Shown here: positions 1 to 64,000 of the stretch, one piece after another | Numbering within the stretch: the first letter of the stretch is position 1 | How the letters are laid out: every line of letters begins with the position of its first letter | IMG/VR virus record: IMGVR_UViG_3300028797_000093 | Source: a virus | Lineage: Duplodnaviria; Caudoviricetes | DNA: 64,000 nucleotides | Strand: one strand, 5' to 3' | Notes under the pieces: model-generated | The model's database searches: none | Told to the model about the DNA's origin: nothing | Seen by the model: only the letters and a program-made list of their open reading frames with translations | Program-made: the position numbers and the translations under genes

Positions 1-344
1 TATCATTTAAATAAGGGCAGCTATTATTGTGATTATTTTTCTCAAAGTAGTGGTACCAGGTATTCTATTCGTGGTGGTAACTGTAGTGCTGGCTCTAATT
101 GTGGTTTCGTCTATGTTCATCTTAGTGTTTCGTTTTCTAACTACTCTTGGAATCGTGGCGCCGCCATATCATTTAAACCATCTCTTCTTTTTATTGTGAT
201 TATTTTTATCAAAGTAGTGGTGCTCACTATTCTTATCGTGGTGGTGTTTCTACAAGTGGGCTCGGTTGTGGCGTTTTCTATGTTAATCTGGACGGTACTG
301 CTTCTAGGGCTGGTTGGTATCTTGGCGCCGCCCTATCATTTAAA
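1..344 (+). repeat. VR-like cassette array A: end of a truncated cassette (1-11) plus cassettes A1 (19-177) and A2 (185-344)
   Basis: Each unit is TATTGTGATTATTTT..CAAAGTAGTGGT + variable core CGTGGTGGT..TGTGG..TGG + GGCGCCGCC(C/A)TATCATTTAAA. It is homologous to the 3' end of the DGR target genes, with no start codon or RBS. Confidence 0.92.
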
Positions 345-353
345 TAAACAAAA

Positions 354-16864: not shown

Positions 16865-16993
16865 ATCTAACCTCCATGAGTTAATACATATCTTTTATTC
16901 TTTTGTTTTTCTAATATTACTAAAATAAAATATACTCTTATTAGCATTACATATCTATATTATATATAAGAAAATAAATTTAATCATTATAGT

Positions 16994-17769
16994 TTTAAAT
17001 GATAGTGTGGCGCCAGGACCCCAACCAGCATAACCAGCAGAACCACTGAGACCAACACAAGAGAAACCACAAAATAGGCCAACACCACAGTAACCACCAC
17101 GAAGACTATAGTGAGTACCACTACTTTGATAAAAATAATATCATAAGTTAAATGATAGGGCGGCGCCAAAGCCCCAGCCGGCAAGACCAGAGCCGCCGTC
17201 GAGGCCAACAAAGAAAACGCCACAATAGAGCCCAGAGGTAGAACGACCACCACGAAGAGCATAATGACTACCACTACTTTGAGCAAAATAATCACAATAA
17301 AAAGAAGAGTTTTAAATGATAGGGCGGCGCCAATGTACCAGCTGGCAAAACCAGAGCCGCTGTAGAGATTAACAAAGAAAACGCCACAATAGAAGCCATT
17401 ACTAGAGGCACCACCACGAATAGCATAATGGGTACCACTACTTTGATAAAAATAATACACATATAGTTTAAATGATAGGGCGGCGCCACGGGCCCAGTCG
17501 GTATAACCAGAGCCGACGCTGAGAGCAACATAGAAAGCACCACAATAGAGTCCACGGTTCGAGAGACCACCACGAAGACTATAGTGAGTGCCACTACTTT
17601 GAGAAAAATAATCACAATAAAAAACATATAGTTTAAATGATAGGGCAGCGCCATGAGACCAGGCGGTCGCACCTGAATGGTTACTGAGAATAACAAATGC
17701 GAAACCACAAAAAACACCATTGCCCGAGTAACCATCACGAAGAGCATATGTAGTACTCGTAGCTTTATA
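16994..17769 (-). repeat. VR-like cassette array B, five cassettes: 17632-17769, 17467-17624, 17311-17457, 17148-17306, 16994-17140
   Basis: Head-to-tail units, each homologous to the last ~45-52 codons of the DGR target genes and ending in TCATTTAA(A). Confidence 0.95.
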
Positions 17770-17796
17770 TATTATCTTTTATGAAAAATAATTTAT

Positions 17797-48548: not shown

Positions 48549-49161
48549 TTTAAATGATATGGCAGCACCAAAGCTCCAGTTGGTACTATTAGAGCCGCTG
48601 CTGAGACGAATACAAGCAAAACCACAATTAAGACCAAGGGACGAGGCACCACCACGAAGAGAATAATTTGTACCACTGCTTTGATAAAAATAATCACAAT
48701 AAAAAGAAAAGAAGAGTTTTAAATGATAGGGCGGCGCCAAAGTACCACCAGGCCCTAGAAAACGAATTGTCCAGGCCAACAAAGAAAGCGCCAAAAAGGA
48801 GACCATAGTACGATGAACCACCACGAATAGCATATGTAGTACTCGTAGCTTTTATATATACTAAGTTTAAATGATAGGGCGGCGCCAAGAGTCCAGCGGG
48901 CAATACCAGAGACGCCGTTGAGGTAAACACAGAAAACCCCACAATAGAAGCCATAACCAGAGTGCCCACCACGAAAAGTATAATTTGTATTATTACTTTG
49001 ATAAAAATAATACCATAGATTTAAATGATAGGGAGGCGCCATAGTACCAGTTTGCTGCACTAGTACTAGAACCACCATTAACAAAAAACACACCACAAGA
49101 GACACCAGACCAAGAAGCACCACCACGATATACATATGTATTACTCGTAGCTTTATAAAAA
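48549..49161 (-). repeat. VR-like cassette array C, four cassettes: 49020-49161, 48866-49012, 48718-48856, 48549-48708
   Basis: Same constant-variable-constant units as arrays A, B and D; lies just downstream of the helicase terminator (~49178-49212). Confidence 0.95.
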
Positions 49162-49212
49162 TTTGCTTTAAAAAAAATAAAAGGTAAGCTTATTACAGCT
49201 TACCTTTTATTA

Positions 49213-55584: not shown

Positions 55585-55879
55585 TATAAAGCTACGAGTA
55601 CTACATATGCTTTTCGTGGTGGTAGCTCTTATAATGGACTCTATTGTGGTTTTGTTTATATTAATCTCTACTACTCTGGTAATACCAGTTGGCATGTTGG
55701 CGCCGCCCTATCATTTAAACTATAGTATAAAAATATCCATATATAAAGCTACGAGTACTACATATGCTCTTCGTGGTGGTGGATGTAGCAATGGCTTTAG
55801 TTGTGGTTTCGCCTTTGTTGGCTTTGGTAACGCCTCAGGGTCGGCCTATTGGTTCTTTGGCGCCGCCCTATCATTTAAA
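55585..55879 (+). repeat. VR-like cassette array D, two cassettes: 55585-55719 and 55742-55879
   Basis: Both begin TATAAAGCTACGAGTACTACATATGCT and end GGCGCCGCCCTATCATTTAAA; D1 lacks one codon. Confidence 0.95.
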
Positions 55880-56582
55880 TTAAAGGATCAAAAGGTGTAT
55901 TTAAATACTCATTAAACTCTTTTTCTCCACCAGAAAATCCATATATATTATAATATTCTTTAAGACATTTTTCACAAATAGGAACAGCATTTTTTGGATC
56001 AGAAAATTTACTTGGGTCAACTGAAAAGGATACAATATGATGAGTCTTAATATCTTCAGTAGTTCCGCAATGAATACAACGAAATAAAGTTTTGTTATAT
56101 TCTTTTATTGTTTTATATTCTTTAGATCCTTCCAATTTATGTCTTAGATCTGTTACTCCGCCTTTCCAATTAGGATGGTTTTCACCAACTTGAATTTTTG
56201 ACAATTCTTCAAAATGTTTACGTGATTTATCTTTTAATAAACAACCACAGGATTTTGTTTCACCAGATTTTAAATAATAATTAAAGTATTCTTTTATATT
56301 ACCACATTCACATTCACAAATAGAGTATCCTGGTCTTTCACTGTGGCCAATAACAGTAAGTCTTCCATACTTATCTCCTATAGTAAGATATTTTCTTTGC
56401 TTTTCTAATAGAGCACAAGCTTGACATTTCTGATGACCATTTCTCTCTAATTGATATTTTGTGGATGTGAATTCTTTACCACAACTATCGCAAATTACAG
56501 TTAAAGGTATCATAGAATTTCTTTTCAAATCTTTATATTCTACGAGTTCACCTTTAAACATTACATATTTATCTTTTAGCAT
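55875..56582 (-). CDS. HNH homing-endonuclease-like protein
   Basis: GDKYGRLTVIG..CECECGN..KSCGC, GENHPNWKGG, and C-terminal CIHC..HHI..N..ICEKC. Confidence 0.75.
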   Translation of the reverse strand: MLKDKYVMFKGELVEYKDLKRNSMIPLTVICDSCGKEFTSTKYQLERNGHQKCQACALLEKQRKYLTIGDKYGRLTVIGHSERPGYSICECECGNIKEYFNYYLKSGETKSCGCLLKDKSRKHFEELSKIQVGENHPNWKGGVTDLRHKLEGSKEYKTIKEYNKTLFRCIHCGTTEDIKTHHIVSFSVDPSKFSDPKNAVPICEKCLKEYYNIYGFSGGEKEFNEYLNTPFDPLI

Positions 56583-56831: not shown

Positions 56832-57101
56832 ATGATAGATATGAGAACTAGTATTGAATTTAAAAATTCTTTAATTGGTAATCTATTTATCATGACTAAT
56901 AGCGTATCCCAGCAACGTGATCTTTTTGAAAAATATTGTAGTTGTTTTGTAAATATTAGTCCCTGGTTCTGCTTCCATAATATTATATACAATAATATTA
57001 TTGGTTGTCTTTCAAGTCTAGTCGTAAGACATCTCAAATACTTGACTAGTGTGTTGATAGCTGGTTTTGAGACTTATTCATCTAAGAATGCCCTAGTGTG
57101 A
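56832..57101 (+). CDS. Small ORF at the DGR accessory-gene position, not recognisably Avd
   Basis: GAGGAGGT RBS, 89 aa, ends 38 nt before TR. Confidence 0.4.
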   Translation: MIDMRTSIEFKNSLIGNLFIMTNSVSQQRDLFEKYCSCFVNISPWFCFHNIIYNNIIGCLSSLVVRHLKYLTSVLIAGFETYSSKNALV

Positions 57102-57139
57102 TGGATAATATGACTTGTAGGTTTTTCTGGGAGGTTACT

Positions 57140-57243
57140 GCTATTCGTGGTGGTAATTCTACAAATGGACTCAATTGTGGTGCTTTCTATGTTAACCTCA
57201 ACAACAACTCTGGTAATACCAACTGGAACAATGGCGCCGCCCT
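57140..57243 (+). repeat. DGR template repeat (TR)
   Basis: 104 bp, 28 adenines, rich in AAC/AAT codons; differs from VR1 and VR2 only at TR adenines. Confidence 0.96.
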
Positions 57244-57486
57244 TTATTCATATCTGGCTTGATATTAGTATTGTATTTTATATATAGTATTGATATTAAG
57301 CTCAACACGTTAATTCCCAGATTAATCTATAGCTCTTGCTAAAAATTAACTTGCAGGGACCATCTGTGAGTAGTTAATCGAAAATGGATGAGAGGATATG
57401 AAAAAAATTATCCTTGATTTATAAAAACAACTATGATATATCTTTGTAGATAGAATATAAATGAAAGGAGGTTAGAGTAGGTTCTT

Positions 57487-58746
57487 ATGAAATCTTACAA
57501 TCATTTATATGAAAAGTATCTTACAGAGGAAAATTGTAAAATAGCACTTTGGAATGGTACTAAAAATAAATCTACTAAGAGAAAGAAGAGTCGAGCAAGA
57601 AAACTTCGTAAAAATAAGAATGTGGAAATTCCAAAGATCTTAGAATATGCTAAGTATGAGAATTTTCATAATTATCCTCATAAGCCTGTACAGATTTATG
57701 ATGGTATAAGAAGAAAAGTACGAGAAATAATTGTTCCAAATGATCATGAACAGGTTGTTCATCATATGATCGTGAATGTTCTGAAGCCTATTCTACTTCC
57801 TAAGTTTTATGAGCATAGTTATGGGAGTATACCAGGTAGAGGCTCTCATAAGGCTAAAAAGGCTATAAAGAAGTGGATTAAGAGAGATCCTTCTAATATG
57901 AAATATTGTCTAAAAATGGATATCAAGAAATACTTTAATAATGTAAATCATGATATCTTAAAACAGATGTTTAAGGATCTCATTCACGATGAAAAGTTCT
58001 TGAGCATAGTCTTCAAGATAATAGATGTGATTCCTGGGAATAAAGGAATCCCATTGGGATTCTATACCAGTCAATGGATAGCAAATATGTATTTGACTGG
58101 TTTGGATCACTTTATCAAGGAAGTTCTAAAGGTTAAGCATTATATAAGGTATATGGATGATATGGTTATCTTTGGTTCTAATAAGAGAATTCTTCATAGA
58201 ATTAGAGAAGCTATTTCCAATTATCTGAAAATAAAGCTTGATCTTGAGCTTAAAGAAAACTGGCAAGTCTTTAGATTTGATTATATAGATAAGAGAGTAC
58301 ATCTTAAGTCTGATAATGTAATTGATGCTAAAGAGTGCTTTGATATGATGAATGGAAACTGTAAGAAAGATCCCACTAAGCCTAGACACCTTGGTAGAGA
58401 TCTTGATTTCATGGGATTTAGATTCTTCAGGGATCGCGTAATTTTAAGAAAGTCTATTATGTTGAAGAGTACGCGCAAGGCCAAGCGTATTGGTAAAAAG
58501 AAAAAGCCTACAATATATGATTGTAGACAAATACTATCTTATCTTGGGTGGATCAAGGCCACTAACGTATATAATATGTACCTAAAGTACATTAAACCTT
58601 ACGTTAACTTCAGAAGATGTAAGAGATACGTTAGCAAATGTGATAGACACAAGAATAAGATACAAAAGATAAATCAAATGTTATATAACAGTTTCTTCCC
58701 AGCTGATATTGATGAAGTTTATCAGTTGTATATAGAAGCTGCATAG
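57487..58746 (+). CDS. DGR reverse transcriptase
   Basis: YCLKMDIKKYF, DGR-type GIPLGFYTSQWIAN, YIRYMDD, LDFMGF; next to TR and VRs. Confidence 0.96.
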   Translation: MKSYNHLYEKYLTEENCKIALWNGTKNKSTKRKKSRARKLRKNKNVEIPKILEYAKYENFHNYPHKPVQIYDGIRRKVREIIVPNDHEQVVHHMIVNVLKPILLPKFYEHSYGSIPGRGSHKAKKAIKKWIKRDPSNMKYCLKMDIKKYFNNVNHDILKQMFKDLIHDEKFLSIVFKIIDVIPGNKGIPLGFYTSQWIANMYLTGLDHFIKEVLKVKHYIRYMDDMVIFGSNKRILHRIREAISNYLKIKLDLELKENWQVFRFDYIDKRVHLKSDNVIDAKECFDMMNGNCKKDPTKPRHLGRDLDFMGFRFFRDRVILRKSIMLKSTRKAKRIGKKKKPTIYDCRQILSYLGWIKATNVYNMYLKYIKPYVNFRRCKRYVSKCDRHKNKIQKINQMLYNSFFPADIDEVYQLYIEAA

Positions 58747-58948: not shown

Positions 58949-60514
58949 ATGAGCAATGTAAGAAAAGCTATTCTTCTAGATGAAACAGCTCAGGCTATTA
59001 GAGCTGGTATTAAAGAAGCAGCTAGTACTATTGCTGCTGCTATTAGTGGTGATCTTCCTGATGATTATGTACTATATGGTTTTCATATTAATGGTGGAGA
59101 ACCAGATCCTGGTAAAGCGGTAACTTATATTGAAGATGCTGCAGGAATGACTCCAGCAAGAATGGATTATCTAAATAATACTTTTGCATATGGATCTTGG
59201 ATTGATGCTTTCTTTATGCCTCGTCCTTGTATGGTAAAATATGATGGAACTGTGGATTATTATCTAAATCCATATAACTATGATCAAAAAGAAAATGGTG
59301 AACTATCTGACATTGGAGACCCAAATACAGACTATGGTGTTACCTATAATGGTAATGCTATGATGGAATGGGGTTCTAATGATCAGCTTATTTGGACCAA
59401 GGTAGTTCCAGATCCTAATGATCCACTATCTGGTTCTGTTTATATTTCTAATAAAAAAGTAGATGATGACTACACAGCTTGGCCATTTATTAACAATCAG
59501 GGAAATATGGTAAAGCATTTCTATACACCTATTTATAATGGCTCTCTAACTGCTTATACTTATAATTCTACAACTTATTATCGTCTTCGTTCAATTCCTC
59601 GTAGAATTGTTATGAATTCTCCCGGTAATAATACTAGTTATACTATTCCATGGGATGATGGTAGTGCTGGAACTCCTGCTGGTATTGCAAATACAAATGC
59701 TACAGCAGAATGGGCTGTTGCTATGAATAACAATCCCAACATTAACCTGGCTAGCAATGCCAGTATTACTCTTTCTTCTTATAGAGCATCTATGGGTTGG
59801 TTTACCGAAGTCTTCTGTGATATCCAGCTTATCAATAATCTTCTTGTTCTTATTGGTAAGAATCTTGATACACAGTATGTATTCGGTAATGGTAATATGA
59901 ATGGTAACGGTAAAACAGGATATTCTAATAATGGTGTTCTTTATACCGGTGCTCATGAGTATAATACTAGTGGTGTTCCACAGTATGATGTACTTAATCA
60001 AGCAGGTCTTTTCTGGGGTTCTACCAGTGTCCAGCAAGCTGTAAAAGTATTTGGTATGGAAAACTGGTGGGGTAACCAGTATAGAAGATATGCTGGTCAT
60101 ATTAATAAATCTTCTAGCAATACATCCACTTATAACCATTTTATCAAAAATACATTTGGTACTGAAGATGGAAGTAGTGGTACAGGATATACTACAGATG
60201 GTACTGGATATATAGATACTCTTTGTGAAACTCCCGATACTGGATACATTAAAAATTGTAAATTTATTAACGATGTATCCATTGGAAGCAGTACCTACAA
60301 AGTTGGAACATTTTTAGCGAGTGTAACTGGAGGCGGTAGCAGCCAGTTCTTCTGTGATTATTTTTATAAAGCTACGAGTACTGCATATGCTTTTCGTGGT
60401 GGTATTTCTACAAATGGGCTCGCTTGTGGTGCTTTCTATGTTAGCCTCAACAACAGCTCTGGTCGTACCCACTGGAGCATTGGCGCCGCCCTATCATTTA
60501 AACCAGTATCCTAA
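58949..60514 (+). CDS. DGR target protein 1 (Mtd-like CLec-fold, probable receptor-binding protein)
   Basis: FGMENWWGNQ motif; VR encodes the C-terminus ending GAALSFKPVS. Confidence 0.85.
   Translation: MSNVRKAILLDETAQAIRAGIKEAASTIAAAISGDLPDDYVLYGFHINGGEPDPGKAVTYIEDAAGMTPARMDYLNNTFAYGSWIDAFFMPRPCMVKYDGTVDYYLNPYNYDQKENGELSDIGDPNTDYGVTYNGNAMMEWGSNDQLIWTKVVPDPNDPLSGSVYISNKKVDDDYTAWPFINNQGNMVKHFYTPIYNGSLTAYTYNSTTYYRLRSIPRRIVMNSPGNNTSYTIPWDDGSAGTPAGIANTNATAEWAVAMNNNPNINLASNASITLSSYRASMGWFTEVFCDIQLINNLLVLIGKNLDTQYVFGNGNMNGNGKTGYSNNGVLYTGAHEYNTSGVPQYDVLNQAGLFWGSTSVQQAVKVFGMENWWGNQYRRYAGHINKSSSNTSTYNHFIKNTFGTEDGSSGTGYTTDGTGYIDTLCETPDTGYIKNCKFINDVSIGSSTYKVGTFLASVTGGGSSQFFCDYFYKATSTAYAFRGGISTNGLACGAFYVSLNNSSGRTHWSIGAALSFKPVS
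60389..60492 (+). repeat. Variable repeat VR1
   Basis: 12 mismatches to TR, all at TR adenines. Confidence 0.96.
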
Positions 60515-60524
60515 AGAGGGTGAA

Positions 60525-60564
60525 TTCGCGCACATGCGCGAAGAGGGGGAAGACCGTTCCCCCT
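60525..60564 (+). promoter_or_regulatory. Post-VR double hairpin (DGR target-recognition element)
   Basis: TTCGCGC-acat-GCGCGAA and AGGGGGAA-gaccg-TTCCCCCT; identical copy after VR2. Confidence 0.75.
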
Positions 60565-60771: not shown

Positions 60772-62361
60772 ATGAGTAATGTAACAAAACCTATTATACT
60801 AGATGAGACTGGTCAAGCTATTAGAGCTGCTATTAAAGAAGGGGCCAGTATTGTTGTAGATAAACTAACTGGTGGTAAGGGAAAGTCTAATGTCGTATAT
60901 GGTTTCCATATTGACAGTTCTGAACCCGATCCTTATGCTGCTGTTACTTATCTAAAAGATGCTGTTGGGATGACTCCAGCACGCATGAATTATCTAAATA
61001 ATAAATTTTCTTATGGATCTTGGGGTAATGTGTTCTTTATGCCTCGTCCTTGTATGGTCAAGTATGATGGTACAGTAGACTATTATCTAGATCCTAATGA
61101 TTATGAGAAAAAAGAAAATGGTGAAATGTCTGATCTTGGTGACTCTACTAAGGGTTATGGCATCAAGTATCAGGGAAACGCTATGATGGAATGGGGAAGA
61201 AATGAGCAACAGATCTGGACTAAGGTTCTTCCTGATTCCAGTGATCCCTATTCTGGTTCTGTATTCATCTCAAATAAACAGATGGATGAAAACTATGTAG
61301 CATGGCCTTTCATTAATAATCAGGGTGCTCTTGTAGATCACTTTTATACTCCAATCTATAATGGCTCTCTGACTGCTTATAAATCTGATTCTAATACTTA
61401 TTATAGACTAAGATCTATTCCACGTAGACCTGTAATGAACTCTCCCGGTAATAACTCTTATGATATTCCCTGGGATGATGATACTGCAGATACTCCTACA
61501 AGCTTTGCTACTCTAACTCAGGCTGGACATGAGGTAAATCTTGCTCTTAATAACAATCCTGGGTTGAATATTACATTTAGTTCTACATATCCTAATGAAA
61601 CTTACTTTACCACCAATAGAGCTTCCATTGGTTGGTTTACTGAAGTTTATGCTGATATTCAGCTTATTAATAACCTCCTGGTACTTATTGGTAAGTCCCT
61701 TAATACTCAGGAAGTTTTTGGTAATGGTAATATGAATGGTAATGGAGCAACCAGTTATTTAAATAATGGTGTTCTTTATACTGGATCTCATGAATATACA
61801 GCAGATGGACCAAATTATTCTAGTCTGAATAAATCTGGTCTTTTCTGGGGATCTAATGGTAATAAATATGCAGTTAAAGTATTTGGTATGGAAAACTGGT
61901 GGGGTAACCAATGGAGGCGGTATGCTGGACACATTGGCGATACATCTACAAATACAAATACTTACAATCATTTTATTAAGAATACTTTCGGTACTGAAGA
62001 TGGATCAACCGTTGTAGGATATAGTACTGCTAAAACAGGATATATAGATACCTTGTGTGAAACTGTACAAGGGTCTAAGTATATTAGAGCTAATAAATTT
62101 ATTAATAGTGTAACTGTAGGAGGAAAAACCTACAGAATAGCTAATTCTTTGGCGAGTAACAACTCCCTGTCAGGGGACGTTGGTTCGAGTTCTTTTTATT
62201 GTGATTATTTTGCTCAAAGTAGTGGTAGTCATTATGCTATTCGTGGTGGTTATTCTACCTATGGGCTCCATTGTGGTGCTTTCTTTGTTTACCTCAACGG
62301 CAACTCTGGTGTTGCCAACTGGGACATTGGCGCCGCCCTATCATTTAAACCAGTATCCTAA
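60772..62361 (+). CDS. DGR target protein 2 (paralog)
   Basis: 529 aa, paralog of target 1, carries VR2. Confidence 0.85.
   Translation: MSNVTKPIILDETGQAIRAAIKEGASIVVDKLTGGKGKSNVVYGFHIDSSEPDPYAAVTYLKDAVGMTPARMNYLNNKFSYGSWGNVFFMPRPCMVKYDGTVDYYLDPNDYEKKENGEMSDLGDSTKGYGIKYQGNAMMEWGRNEQQIWTKVLPDSSDPYSGSVFISNKQMDENYVAWPFINNQGALVDHFYTPIYNGSLTAYKSDSNTYYRLRSIPRRPVMNSPGNNSYDIPWDDDTADTPTSFATLTQAGHEVNLALNNNPGLNITFSSTYPNETYFTTNRASIGWFTEVYADIQLINNLLVLIGKSLNTQEVFGNGNMNGNGATSYLNNGVLYTGSHEYTADGPNYSSLNKSGLFWGSNGNKYAVKVFGMENWWGNQWRRYAGHIGDTSTNTNTYNHFIKNTFGTEDGSTVVGYSTAKTGYIDTLCETVQGSKYIRANKFINSVTVGGKTYRIANSLASNNSLSGDVGSSSFYCDYFAQSSGSHYAIRGGYSTYGLHCGAFFVYLNGNSGVANWDIGAALSFKPVS
62236..62339 (+). repeat. Variable repeat VR2
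   Basis: 14 mismatches to TR, all at TR adenines. Confidence 0.96.
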
Positions 62362-62371
62362 AGAGGGTGAA

Positions 62372-62411
62372 TTCGCGCACATGCGCGAAGAGGGGGAAGA
62401 CCGTTCCCCCT
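62372..62411 (+). promoter_or_regulatory. Post-VR double hairpin, second copy
   Basis: Identical to 60525-60564. Confidence 0.75.
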
Positions 62412-62542: not shown

Positions 62543-64000
62543 ATGAGTAATGTAACAAAACCTATTATACTAGATGAGACTGGTCAAGCTATTAGAGCTG
62601 CTATTAAAGAAGGCTATAGTATGATAGCAGAAAAAATTAGCCCATCCGGTCCTGTATATGGTATAGAGTATGGATTCCATATTAGTAGCACGGAAGCAGA
62701 TCCTTATGCTGCTGTTACTTATCTGAAGGACGCAGTAGGAATGACTCCTGCTAAAATGAATTATCTAAATAATAAATTTTCTTATGGATCTTGGGAAGAT
62801 GTTTTCTTCATGCCAAAACCTTGTATGGTCAAATATGATGGCACTGTAGATTATTATCTAGATCCCAATGATTATGATAAAAAAGAAGATGGTAGTATTT
62901 CCGATATTGGAGATTCTACTAAAGGATATGGTATTAAATATCCTGGCAATGCTATGATGGAATGGGGATCTGATGGTCAGCAAATTTGGACTAAAGTATT
63001 GCCTGATGCTAACGATCCTTACTCTGGATCTGTTTATATTTCTAATAAACAGATGGATGAAAACTATGTAGCGTGGCCTTTCATTAATAATCAGGGAAGA
63101 TTGGTCGATCATTTTTATACTCCAATCTATAATGGTTCTCTGACTGCTTATACTTATAATGCTACAACATACTATAGATTAAGATCTATCCCCAGGAGGC
63201 CTGTAATGAATTCTCCTGGAGATAATGCATATGATATTCCATGGGATGATGATACAGAGGATTCTCCCACCAATTTGGGATCTACTCTTACTAGAGCTTC
63301 TCATGAAGTAATCTTTGCATTGAATAATAATCCTGATATTAATCAGGCATCTAGTACTACTTATCCTGATAATACTTTCATGGCTACCAATAGATCTTCT
63401 ATCGGTTGGTTTACTGAAGTTTATTGTGATATTCAATTGATTAATAATCTTCTTGTATTGATTGGTAAATCTCTCAATACACAGGAGATCTTTGGTAATG
63501 GTAATATGAATGGTAATGGAGCTACTCATTATCTCAATAATGGTGTCCTCTATACTGGTTCTTCTGAGTATACTGCTGATGGTCCTAACTATTCTACTCT
63601 TAACAAGTCTGGATTGTTTTGGGGTTCTAATGGAAACAAGCAAGCTGTAAAAGTATTTGGTATGGAAAACTGGTGGGGTAATCAGTGGCGTCGTTATGCG
63701 GGTCATATTGGAGATACTTCCACTAACACTAGTACATATAATCATTTCATTAAAAATACCTTTGGAACAGAAGATGGTAGTACTGTAATTGGTTACGGAA
63801 CAGCTAAGACTGGTTACATTGATACTCTTTGTGAGACTGTACAAGGGTCTAAGTATATTAGAGCTAATAAATTTATTAATAGCGTAACTGTAGGAGGTAA
63901 AACCTACAGAATAGCTAATTCTTTAGCGAGTAACAACTCCCTACCAGGTACTGTAGGGAGTGGGAGCTATTATTGTGATTATTTTTCTCAAAGTAGTGGT
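62543..64000 (+). CDS. DGR target protein 3 (paralog, truncated by the window end just before its VR)
   Basis: Start region identical to target 2; open to the window end, finishing YCDYFSQSSG; missing from the ORF track because it has no stop. Confidence 0.85.
   Translation, partial: MSNVTKPIILDETGQAIRAAIKEGYSMIAEKISPSGPVYGIEYGFHISSTEADPYAAVTYLKDAVGMTPAKMNYLNNKFSYGSWEDVFFMPKPCMVKYDGTVDYYLDPNDYDKKEDGSISDIGDSTKGYGIKYPGNAMMEWGSDGQQIWTKVLPDANDPYSGSVYISNKQMDENYVAWPFINNQGRLVDHFYTPIYNGSLTAYTYNATTYYRLRSIPRRPVMNSPGDNAYDIPWDDDTEDSPTNLGSTLTRASHEVIFALNNNPDINQASSTTYPDNTFMATNRSSIGWFTEVYCDIQLINNLLVLIGKSLNTQEIFGNGNMNGNGATHYLNNGVLYTGSSEYTADGPNYSTLNKSGLFWGSNGNKQAVKVFGMENWWGNQWRRYAGHIGDTSTNTSTYNHFIKNTFGTEDGSTVIGYGTAKTGYIDTLCETVQGSKYIRANKFINSVTVGGKTYRIANSLASNNSLPGTVGSGSYYCDYFSQSSG

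Follow-up and report, generated by a model that had tools for sequence, protein, structure and literature searches.

Tandem silent partial copies with conserved ends are found in Borrelia vls, Neisseria pilS/pilE and Treponema tprK, where the silent cassettes donate sequence to an expression site and produce mosaics. A different route is taken by DGRs. In BPP-1 the 3' start of the information transfer is fixed, and the 5' join needs no more than about 8 bp of identity (PMC3240598). Several TR alleles (~81% identical) and remote VR-bearing loci have been described in the single species Treponema denticola, the TR variants falling into two main branches in agreement with the strain tree, and the remote copies being whole genes (PMC4891356). 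Up to 11 non-A differences per target were reported in the survey of Wu et al. and were read as RT or repair errors (PMC5758913), and genomes with multiple DGRs whose targets are served in trans are known (PMC10907252). Intraspecific TR variants (T. denticola) and non-A differences, common in DGRs, are already known; new here is that the TR turns over in blocks and that a silent cassette archive records it. A literature search, mostly without subscription papers, found neither a report of arrays of silent VR copies that record TR turnover in blocks nor a paper combining DGR mutagenesis with cassette-to-gene copying.

The stretch analysed here (the window) is 64 kb of a 253,886-bp contig, has 31% GC and is phage-like, with genes for a family-B DNA polymerase, a divergent DnaB and virion and baseplate proteins. 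A genuine DGR is located at 57.1-64 kb and includes the TR, an RT (419 aa) and three paralogous targets, and 13 extra VR copies (cassettes) are present in four intergenic arrays, A-D. As in DGRs of the BPP-1 type (mtd, avd, TR, brt), the RT lies beside an AAY-rich TR, the C-terminal VRs differ from the TR at adenines only (A-only), a GC hairpin follows the target and the target is predicted to be C-type-lectin-like, with a modelled fold nearest to TaqVP (PDB 5vf4). Unlike that type, no Avd was recognised here, the TR, described there as invariant, is block-polymorphic, dozens of silent VR copies exist and some genic VRs are not TR-derived. Multiple TR alleles within a species and remote VR copies are shared with the T. 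denticola DGR, but the patchwork alleles found here change between genomes 99.9% alike, and the copies are promoterless fragments that appear to record earlier templates. The tandem silent partial copies with conserved ends, which probably act as expression-site donors, resemble those of vls, pilS/pilE and tprK, although this system belongs to a phage and its cassettes are marked by adenine mutagenesis of the RT type. VR copies with several non-A differences to the TR also occur in the cases of Wu et al. (PMC5758913), whereas here these differences reach 22 per copy, are recurrent and are matched to real alternative templates.

The DGR locus and the cassette arrays

The components of the DGR are the following:
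57140-57243, plus strand: template repeat allele a (TR-a), the sole TR within the window
57330-57403, plus strand: weak match to the Rfam RT-18 RNA between TR and RT (34.4 bits, under the gathering score of 41.3)
57487-58746, plus strand: DGR reverse transcriptase, 419 aa
58949-60514, plus strand: target gene 1 (tail-protein PHROG, TaqVP-like predicted fold), with VR1 at about 60389-60492, A-only against TR-a
60525-60564, plus strand: two GC-rich hairpins 3' of target 1, absent after cassettes B1-B5
60772-62361, plus strand: target gene 2, with VR2 at about 62236-62339, A-only against TR-a
62543-64000, plus strand: target gene 3, truncated by the window end just upstream of its VR

The RT matched RVT_1 and phrog_1423 (E 7e-103), and its top annotated matches were RTs of Butyrivibrio and Faecalibacterium phages; among annotated phages there was no close relative, the best RT reaching 42%. 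Searches of the IMG/VR and GTDB collections retrieved no close relatives, and the relatives that were found are, by their record names, bovine and other ruminant-type metagenome assemblies. The VR of target 1 corresponds to its C-terminal residues 483-521. A PDB search with the target sequence gave no match, and the structural model (pLDDT 91.9) had TaqVP as its top PDB match (E 7e-7, TM 0.34-0.45), followed by Mtd. The 3' end is GC-rich and diverges between TR and VR, as in a homing signal, with a hairpin z of -3.6, and the hairpins are repeated 3' of target 2 at 62372-62411. VR1 and VR2 showed zero non-A differences to TR-a, and the same was found for VRs matched to their own TR in the related contigs L087, L101, L105 and L098. 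No Pfam match to Avd or another accessory protein was obtained for the ORFs upstream of the TR. The TR itself sits in a 53-codon open frame (57101-57262), kept in all alleles seen, and gene callers list this frame as a protein, so that TR alleles can be retrieved from the protein collection. An HNH-like zinc-binding gene is located between array D and the TR (55875-56582); L101 has a 73% identical copy, and L096, L098 and L105 lack it and carry more cassettes there instead.

Array B consists of five cassettes on the minus strand at 16994-17769, B1 being the first and B5 the last. The cassettes are listed below, with codon 1 taken as the Arg of RGG; TR-b, TR-c and TR-d are the further alleles presented in the next section.
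16-345, plus strand: cassettes A1 and A2, the end of an array extending beyond the window
17632-17769, minus strand: cassette B1, with a target-1-type 5' arm and a VR copy carrying a Phe-Ala block
17467-17622, minus strand: cassette B2, TR-c-type at codons 1-17 and TR-a-type at codons 18-32, with zero residual non-A differences
17311-17457, minus strand: cassette B3, Val-Phe class, 3' half TR-a-type
17148-17308, minus strand: cassette B4, TR-a type apart from a Val-Phe block, 5' arm 44/45 identical to target 2
16994-17140, minus strand: cassette B5, Phe-x class, nearest to TR-b/d and the most decayed of the array (GC3 0.19)
48549-49165, minus strand: cassettes C1-C4
55585-55879, plus strand: cassettes D1 and D2, D1 with one AAC codon deleted

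Two other assemblies contain array B at 99.8-99.9% identity and with identical cores, so it is not an assembly artefact; in addition, an ORF spanning B1-B3 was residue-identical on 7 contigs. The genic VRs of L087, from one sample that also carries array B, differ from those of the window, and the cassettes are unchanged. B1-B5 are fragments of 140-160 nt with 2-19 non-A differences, lack the hairpin and are static across samples. As in vls and pilS, the cassettes are partial copies with conserved ends and without the gene body. An identification of B1-B5 as remote DGR target genes was rejected, since they do not form a full gene, are not A-only and have no hairpin. The ORFs 17292-17747 and 16987-17460 were also discarded as genes, being out-of-frame or startless read-through of the cassettes. 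B1-B3 share one stop-free frame (17295-17770, minus strand), with no start codon before B1. Array content varies by strain, locus B being occupied by one unrelated cassette in L104, and L086 carries five cassettes at a position where the window has none.

Non-adenine differences and alternative TR alleles

A comparison with TR-a revealed 163 non-A differences in the 13 cassettes (2-22 each) and none in VR1 and VR2. The sequence-only reading had proposed that these differences recur in classes, and each of its examples was found: Phe-x at codons 13-14 in a second class (A1, B1, B5, C4, D1 and D2), GGC GTT TTC in A2, B3 and B4, and the C3 motifs CTG GAC and TCT AGG GC, in common with A2, and TCG TTT TCT, in common with A1. 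When the changes were moved to other sites matched for base and codon position, 132±8 or 160±8 shared pairs were expected, against 290 observed (p<5e-5); singletons made up 23 of the 58 distinct changes. Sharing so far above the null excludes the unshared, random differences of simple drift that had been named as the contrary outcome.

Three further TR alleles were retrieved next to RT homologues 98-99% identical, with the TR at the same locus: TR-b (L101-L103), TR-c (L105) and TR-d (L106), giving four alleles in one species. Non-A differences of the L101 VR numbered 0 against TR-b and 20 against TR-a, and those of the L105 VR 0 against TR-c and 12 against TR-a; from these own-contig matches, TR-b and TR-c are working templates. 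TR-d is located at a contig end, and the VR of its own contig does not match it. Both TR-b and TR-d encode Phe-Ala at codons 13-14, which corresponds to the second class, and the block common to A2 and C3 is carried by TR-b and TR-c. The TR of the sister phage L096 has Val-Phe preceded by an A at codon 12 position 3, and TR-encoded peptides in the protein collection revealed still more alleles, whose codon 13 specifies Ala, Val, Thr, Leu or Ser.

The exact base of TR-b, c or d accounted for 101 of the 163 differences (means of three null models 41, 52 and 62, maxima 61-87). Another 11 fall on an adenine of these alleles, and the remaining 51, many of them C-to-T, are unexplained by the four alleles and require unsampled templates, drift or other routes. 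The excess persisted when only TR-b and TR-c were used; it was also found in array B alone (34/46 differences, null 16) and at codon positions 1 and 2 only (15/17, null 5). The parse of B2 as TR-c followed by TR-a, with nothing left over, was matched by 3 of 20000 random placements. B1 was best parsed as TR-c / TR-b / TR-a with 9 changes left over, A2 has a TR-a-type 5' half and a TR-b/c 3' block, and B3 fits an unsampled template common to C2 and to two cassettes from other samples (templates 'e' and 'f' were fitted post hoc). At codon 12 position 3, all four bases were found among the Val-Phe cassettes, 13 of 20 varying at this site, in comparison with 2 of 38 others (p=2e-6), an adenine footprint that points to a distinct template and not to drift. 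The data support more than one TR behind the cassettes, as judged from sequence comparison. Other TR alleles, which had been suggested as a source, do exist in close strains and bear the blocks in question, which supports the proposal that the arrays hold sequence beyond the reach of the present TR.

Block turnover of the TR and origin of the mosaic cassettes

Among 62 distinct copies from this species, the blocks at codons 5, 13-14 and 22-23 were found in most combinations, with at least three classes at codons 13-14. Linkage (r2) fell from 0.24 at distances up to 5 nt to 0.02 beyond 30 nt, decaying within about 15 nt, and four gametes were present in 95-100% of the site pairs more than 5 nt apart. 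Both results support recombination among blocks, the other source that had been considered. Like the cassettes, the TR alleles are patchworks built from these blocks, and the TR cores were 62-82% identical between strains with RT genes 95-99.7% identical; in a control of 43 ordinary gut-phage DGR loci from one phage family, nearly all with one VR copy, cores were 99.1% identical (minimum 95.7%) at 95-99% RT identity. Short-term TR invariance was thus not found in this lineage, and since the TR is inconstant the library contains products of many past templates. The TRs keep 23-27 adenines, with polymorphism at 11/29 A sites and 18/40 other sites, and the adenine erosion expected from wholesale back-conversion was not seen across the TR alleles. 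The non-A framework of the TR turns over in blocks, and the library can be read as its fossil record.

Over the core, TR-c shares 72% identity with the TR of an unrelated DGR (L045:233-328, RT 52% identical), a higher value than the 62% between TR-a and TR-b; this likeness may reflect either an ancestral state or imported blocks. An import of TR blocks from unrelated DGRs was considered and not adopted, as a single 17-nt match of TR-c/d to the L045-L047 TR is indecisive and the other matches to unrelated DGRs lie outside TRs or are of 14-15 nt.

The best explanation, with a probability of about 0.72, is that the cassettes are stored VR copies made at different times by different TR alleles. 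The RT would rewrite the genic VRs from the resident TR at adenines only, a pattern directly observed. VR states, each with the 3' end and a short arm of the target but no hairpin, would be copied into silent arrays, and the stored cassettes would lie beyond the reach of the RT, with stasis seen across assemblies and silence deduced from their structure. Exchange of the TR framework in short blocks, visible in the alleles, leaves strains with different mosaic templates. The library consequently holds products of many past templates, together with slow C-to-T drift and patch exchange, as the statistics show, and cassettes would finally be copied back to genes. Mosaics would arise mostly from mosaic templates and to a lesser extent by partial overwriting at the genic VR and by cassette-cassette exchange.

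The mosaics had been attributed by the sequence-only reading to polar overwriting, in which cDNA of the current TR replaces an old VR or cassette from the 3' end and leaves the old 5' part. Its observation on B2 and B3 held, both being A-only against the TR over the final 36 nt (codons 18-29), and B4 and C2 are also A-only at the 3' end, over 49 nt. These tracts, the TR-a-type 3' half in eight window cassettes, the change from TR-c to TR-a of B2 within a long shared stretch, and the 3'-initiated homing with short-homology 5' join of BPP-1 (PMC3240598) all fit such a process. However, A2 has the reverse order, and L105:820 has a TR-a-type 3' half inside a TR-c genome. The same junction appears in cassettes of different samples, as a single mosaic template would give, and cassettes of several samples can be derived from single fitted templates with 0-2 changes left over. 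No genic VR half-overwritten by its own TR was found among the contigs examined, and the cassettes lack the hairpin and are unchanged where genic VRs differ. Non-A changes numbered 81 at 24 sites in codons 4-14 and 66 at 17 sites in codons 17-26, and over the 13 cassettes the non-A rate was no higher 5' than 3'. Polarity is therefore not established, mosaic TRs being sufficient, and overwriting as the general cause is rather unlikely. As the cassettes are static and without hairpin, any overwriting happened at the genic VR prior to storage; it may have shaped some cassettes in this way, and it is not required.

A second alternative, equally tentative, is that cassettes or VRs give short patches to the TR, so that the library diversifies its own template. 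L105 and L106 have 7 differences in about 5,100 bases outside the TR and share VR1 and VR2, and their TRs differ at 11 bases in two multi-base blocks. Both TR-d blocks are letter-identical in cassettes (D2 and L082:608 for one, L091:286 for the other), and TR variability tracks cassette presence, none being seen in the control family with one VR copy per locus. Against this, cassettes derived from such TRs would bear the blocks anyway, so that the identity fits either direction; TR-d, at a contig end, may stem from a second strain in the L106 sample; and adenines are kept, although conversion by mutated copies should erode them in the absence of strong selection or very short tracts. TR exchange between co-infecting phages would by itself preserve the adenines, whereas cassettes are a permanently available source of patches; the contigs are compatible with both. 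A closed loop, with information passing from TR to VR through the mutagenic RT, from VR to the library, and from the library to VR and, in short patches, to the TR, is likewise doubtful.

That another part of the 254-kb genome has a second or third TR which makes the other classes today is very unlikely. The TR search covered the 64 kb of the window, and multi-DGR genomes provide a precedent (PMC10907252), but the window has a single TR, at least three classes exist at codons 13-14 with freely combined blocks, the other alleles occupy the locus of TR-a in sister strains, and the cassettes are static.

Drift or inaccurate reverse transcription of the resident TR agrees with the 68 of 163 differences that are C-to-T in this 31% GC genome and with a survey in which 23% of DGRs had non-A differences, attributed there to RT or repair (PMC5758913), but is refuted as the main cause, since six genic VRs show zero non-A change to their own TR, the passage from Ala-Phe to Phe-Ala takes five or six adjacent changes and yet recurs, and 62 of the 95 differences other than C-to-T still equal the base of another TR; some of the residual third can still fairly be explained in this way.

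Probable copying of cassettes into target genes, and arms and borders of the cassettes

Target 1 of L098 contains a 111-nt run identical to a cassette of the same contig, which was assembled twice (L098 and L099). This target has 22 non-A differences to its own TR, and target 2 of L098 is A-only. Of 47 distinct genic VR peptides, 6 matched a cassette at 25-26 of 26 residues, a seventh match being dropped as a self-match. In these assembled contigs, cassette sequence is present in the expression site and the donor is retained, as in vls and pilS. The 3' flank of the L098 donor cassette is degenerate, and another strain carries a diverged counterpart; from this flank and the orthologous cassettes elsewhere a cassette-to-gene direction is deduced.

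The reach of a DGR is limited by its template, only adenine positions being available, and here this limit itself moves. The genome retains a readable record of earlier templates, from which TR evolution becomes measurable in single genomes, and a quarter of DGRs show non-A differences that lack an explanation, for which template turnover is a concrete candidate. Cassette-to-gene copying and a DGR are two ways of varying a binding surface that would be joined here; a closed loop, if true, would allow the phage to reprogramme a fixed mutator scaffold and to reach sequence space beyond any single template.

Some additional observations concern the arms and borders of targets and cassettes. The 5' arms appear to travel with cassettes, according to the 44/45 match between the window target 2 arm and B4. 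This target 2 arm (62191-62235), upstream of the TR homology, differs from that of the otherwise identical L087 strain. In the 5' arm of B5, two linked bases (17131 and 17106) differ in L108 and L109, where they match the arm of cassette L082:932 and that of the L087 genic VR; either a cassette patch exchange or a consensus error in one assembly could account for them. Target genes continue directly into a cassette array in P0250, P0254, P0265, P0270, P0280, L081 and L092, as a product either of assembly joins at common arms or of true crossovers. After 4.1 kb of identity, L100:4102-4473 has 31 clustered differences to the 5' body of target 1 (window ~59320-59690), for which an exchange between target paralogues or an assembly chimera is possible. 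In the gene calls of the ENA contig of P0246, no RT is present between the HAD gene and target 1, and the target VR equals cassette L086:703; a strain lacking an RT may vary its tip from the library alone.
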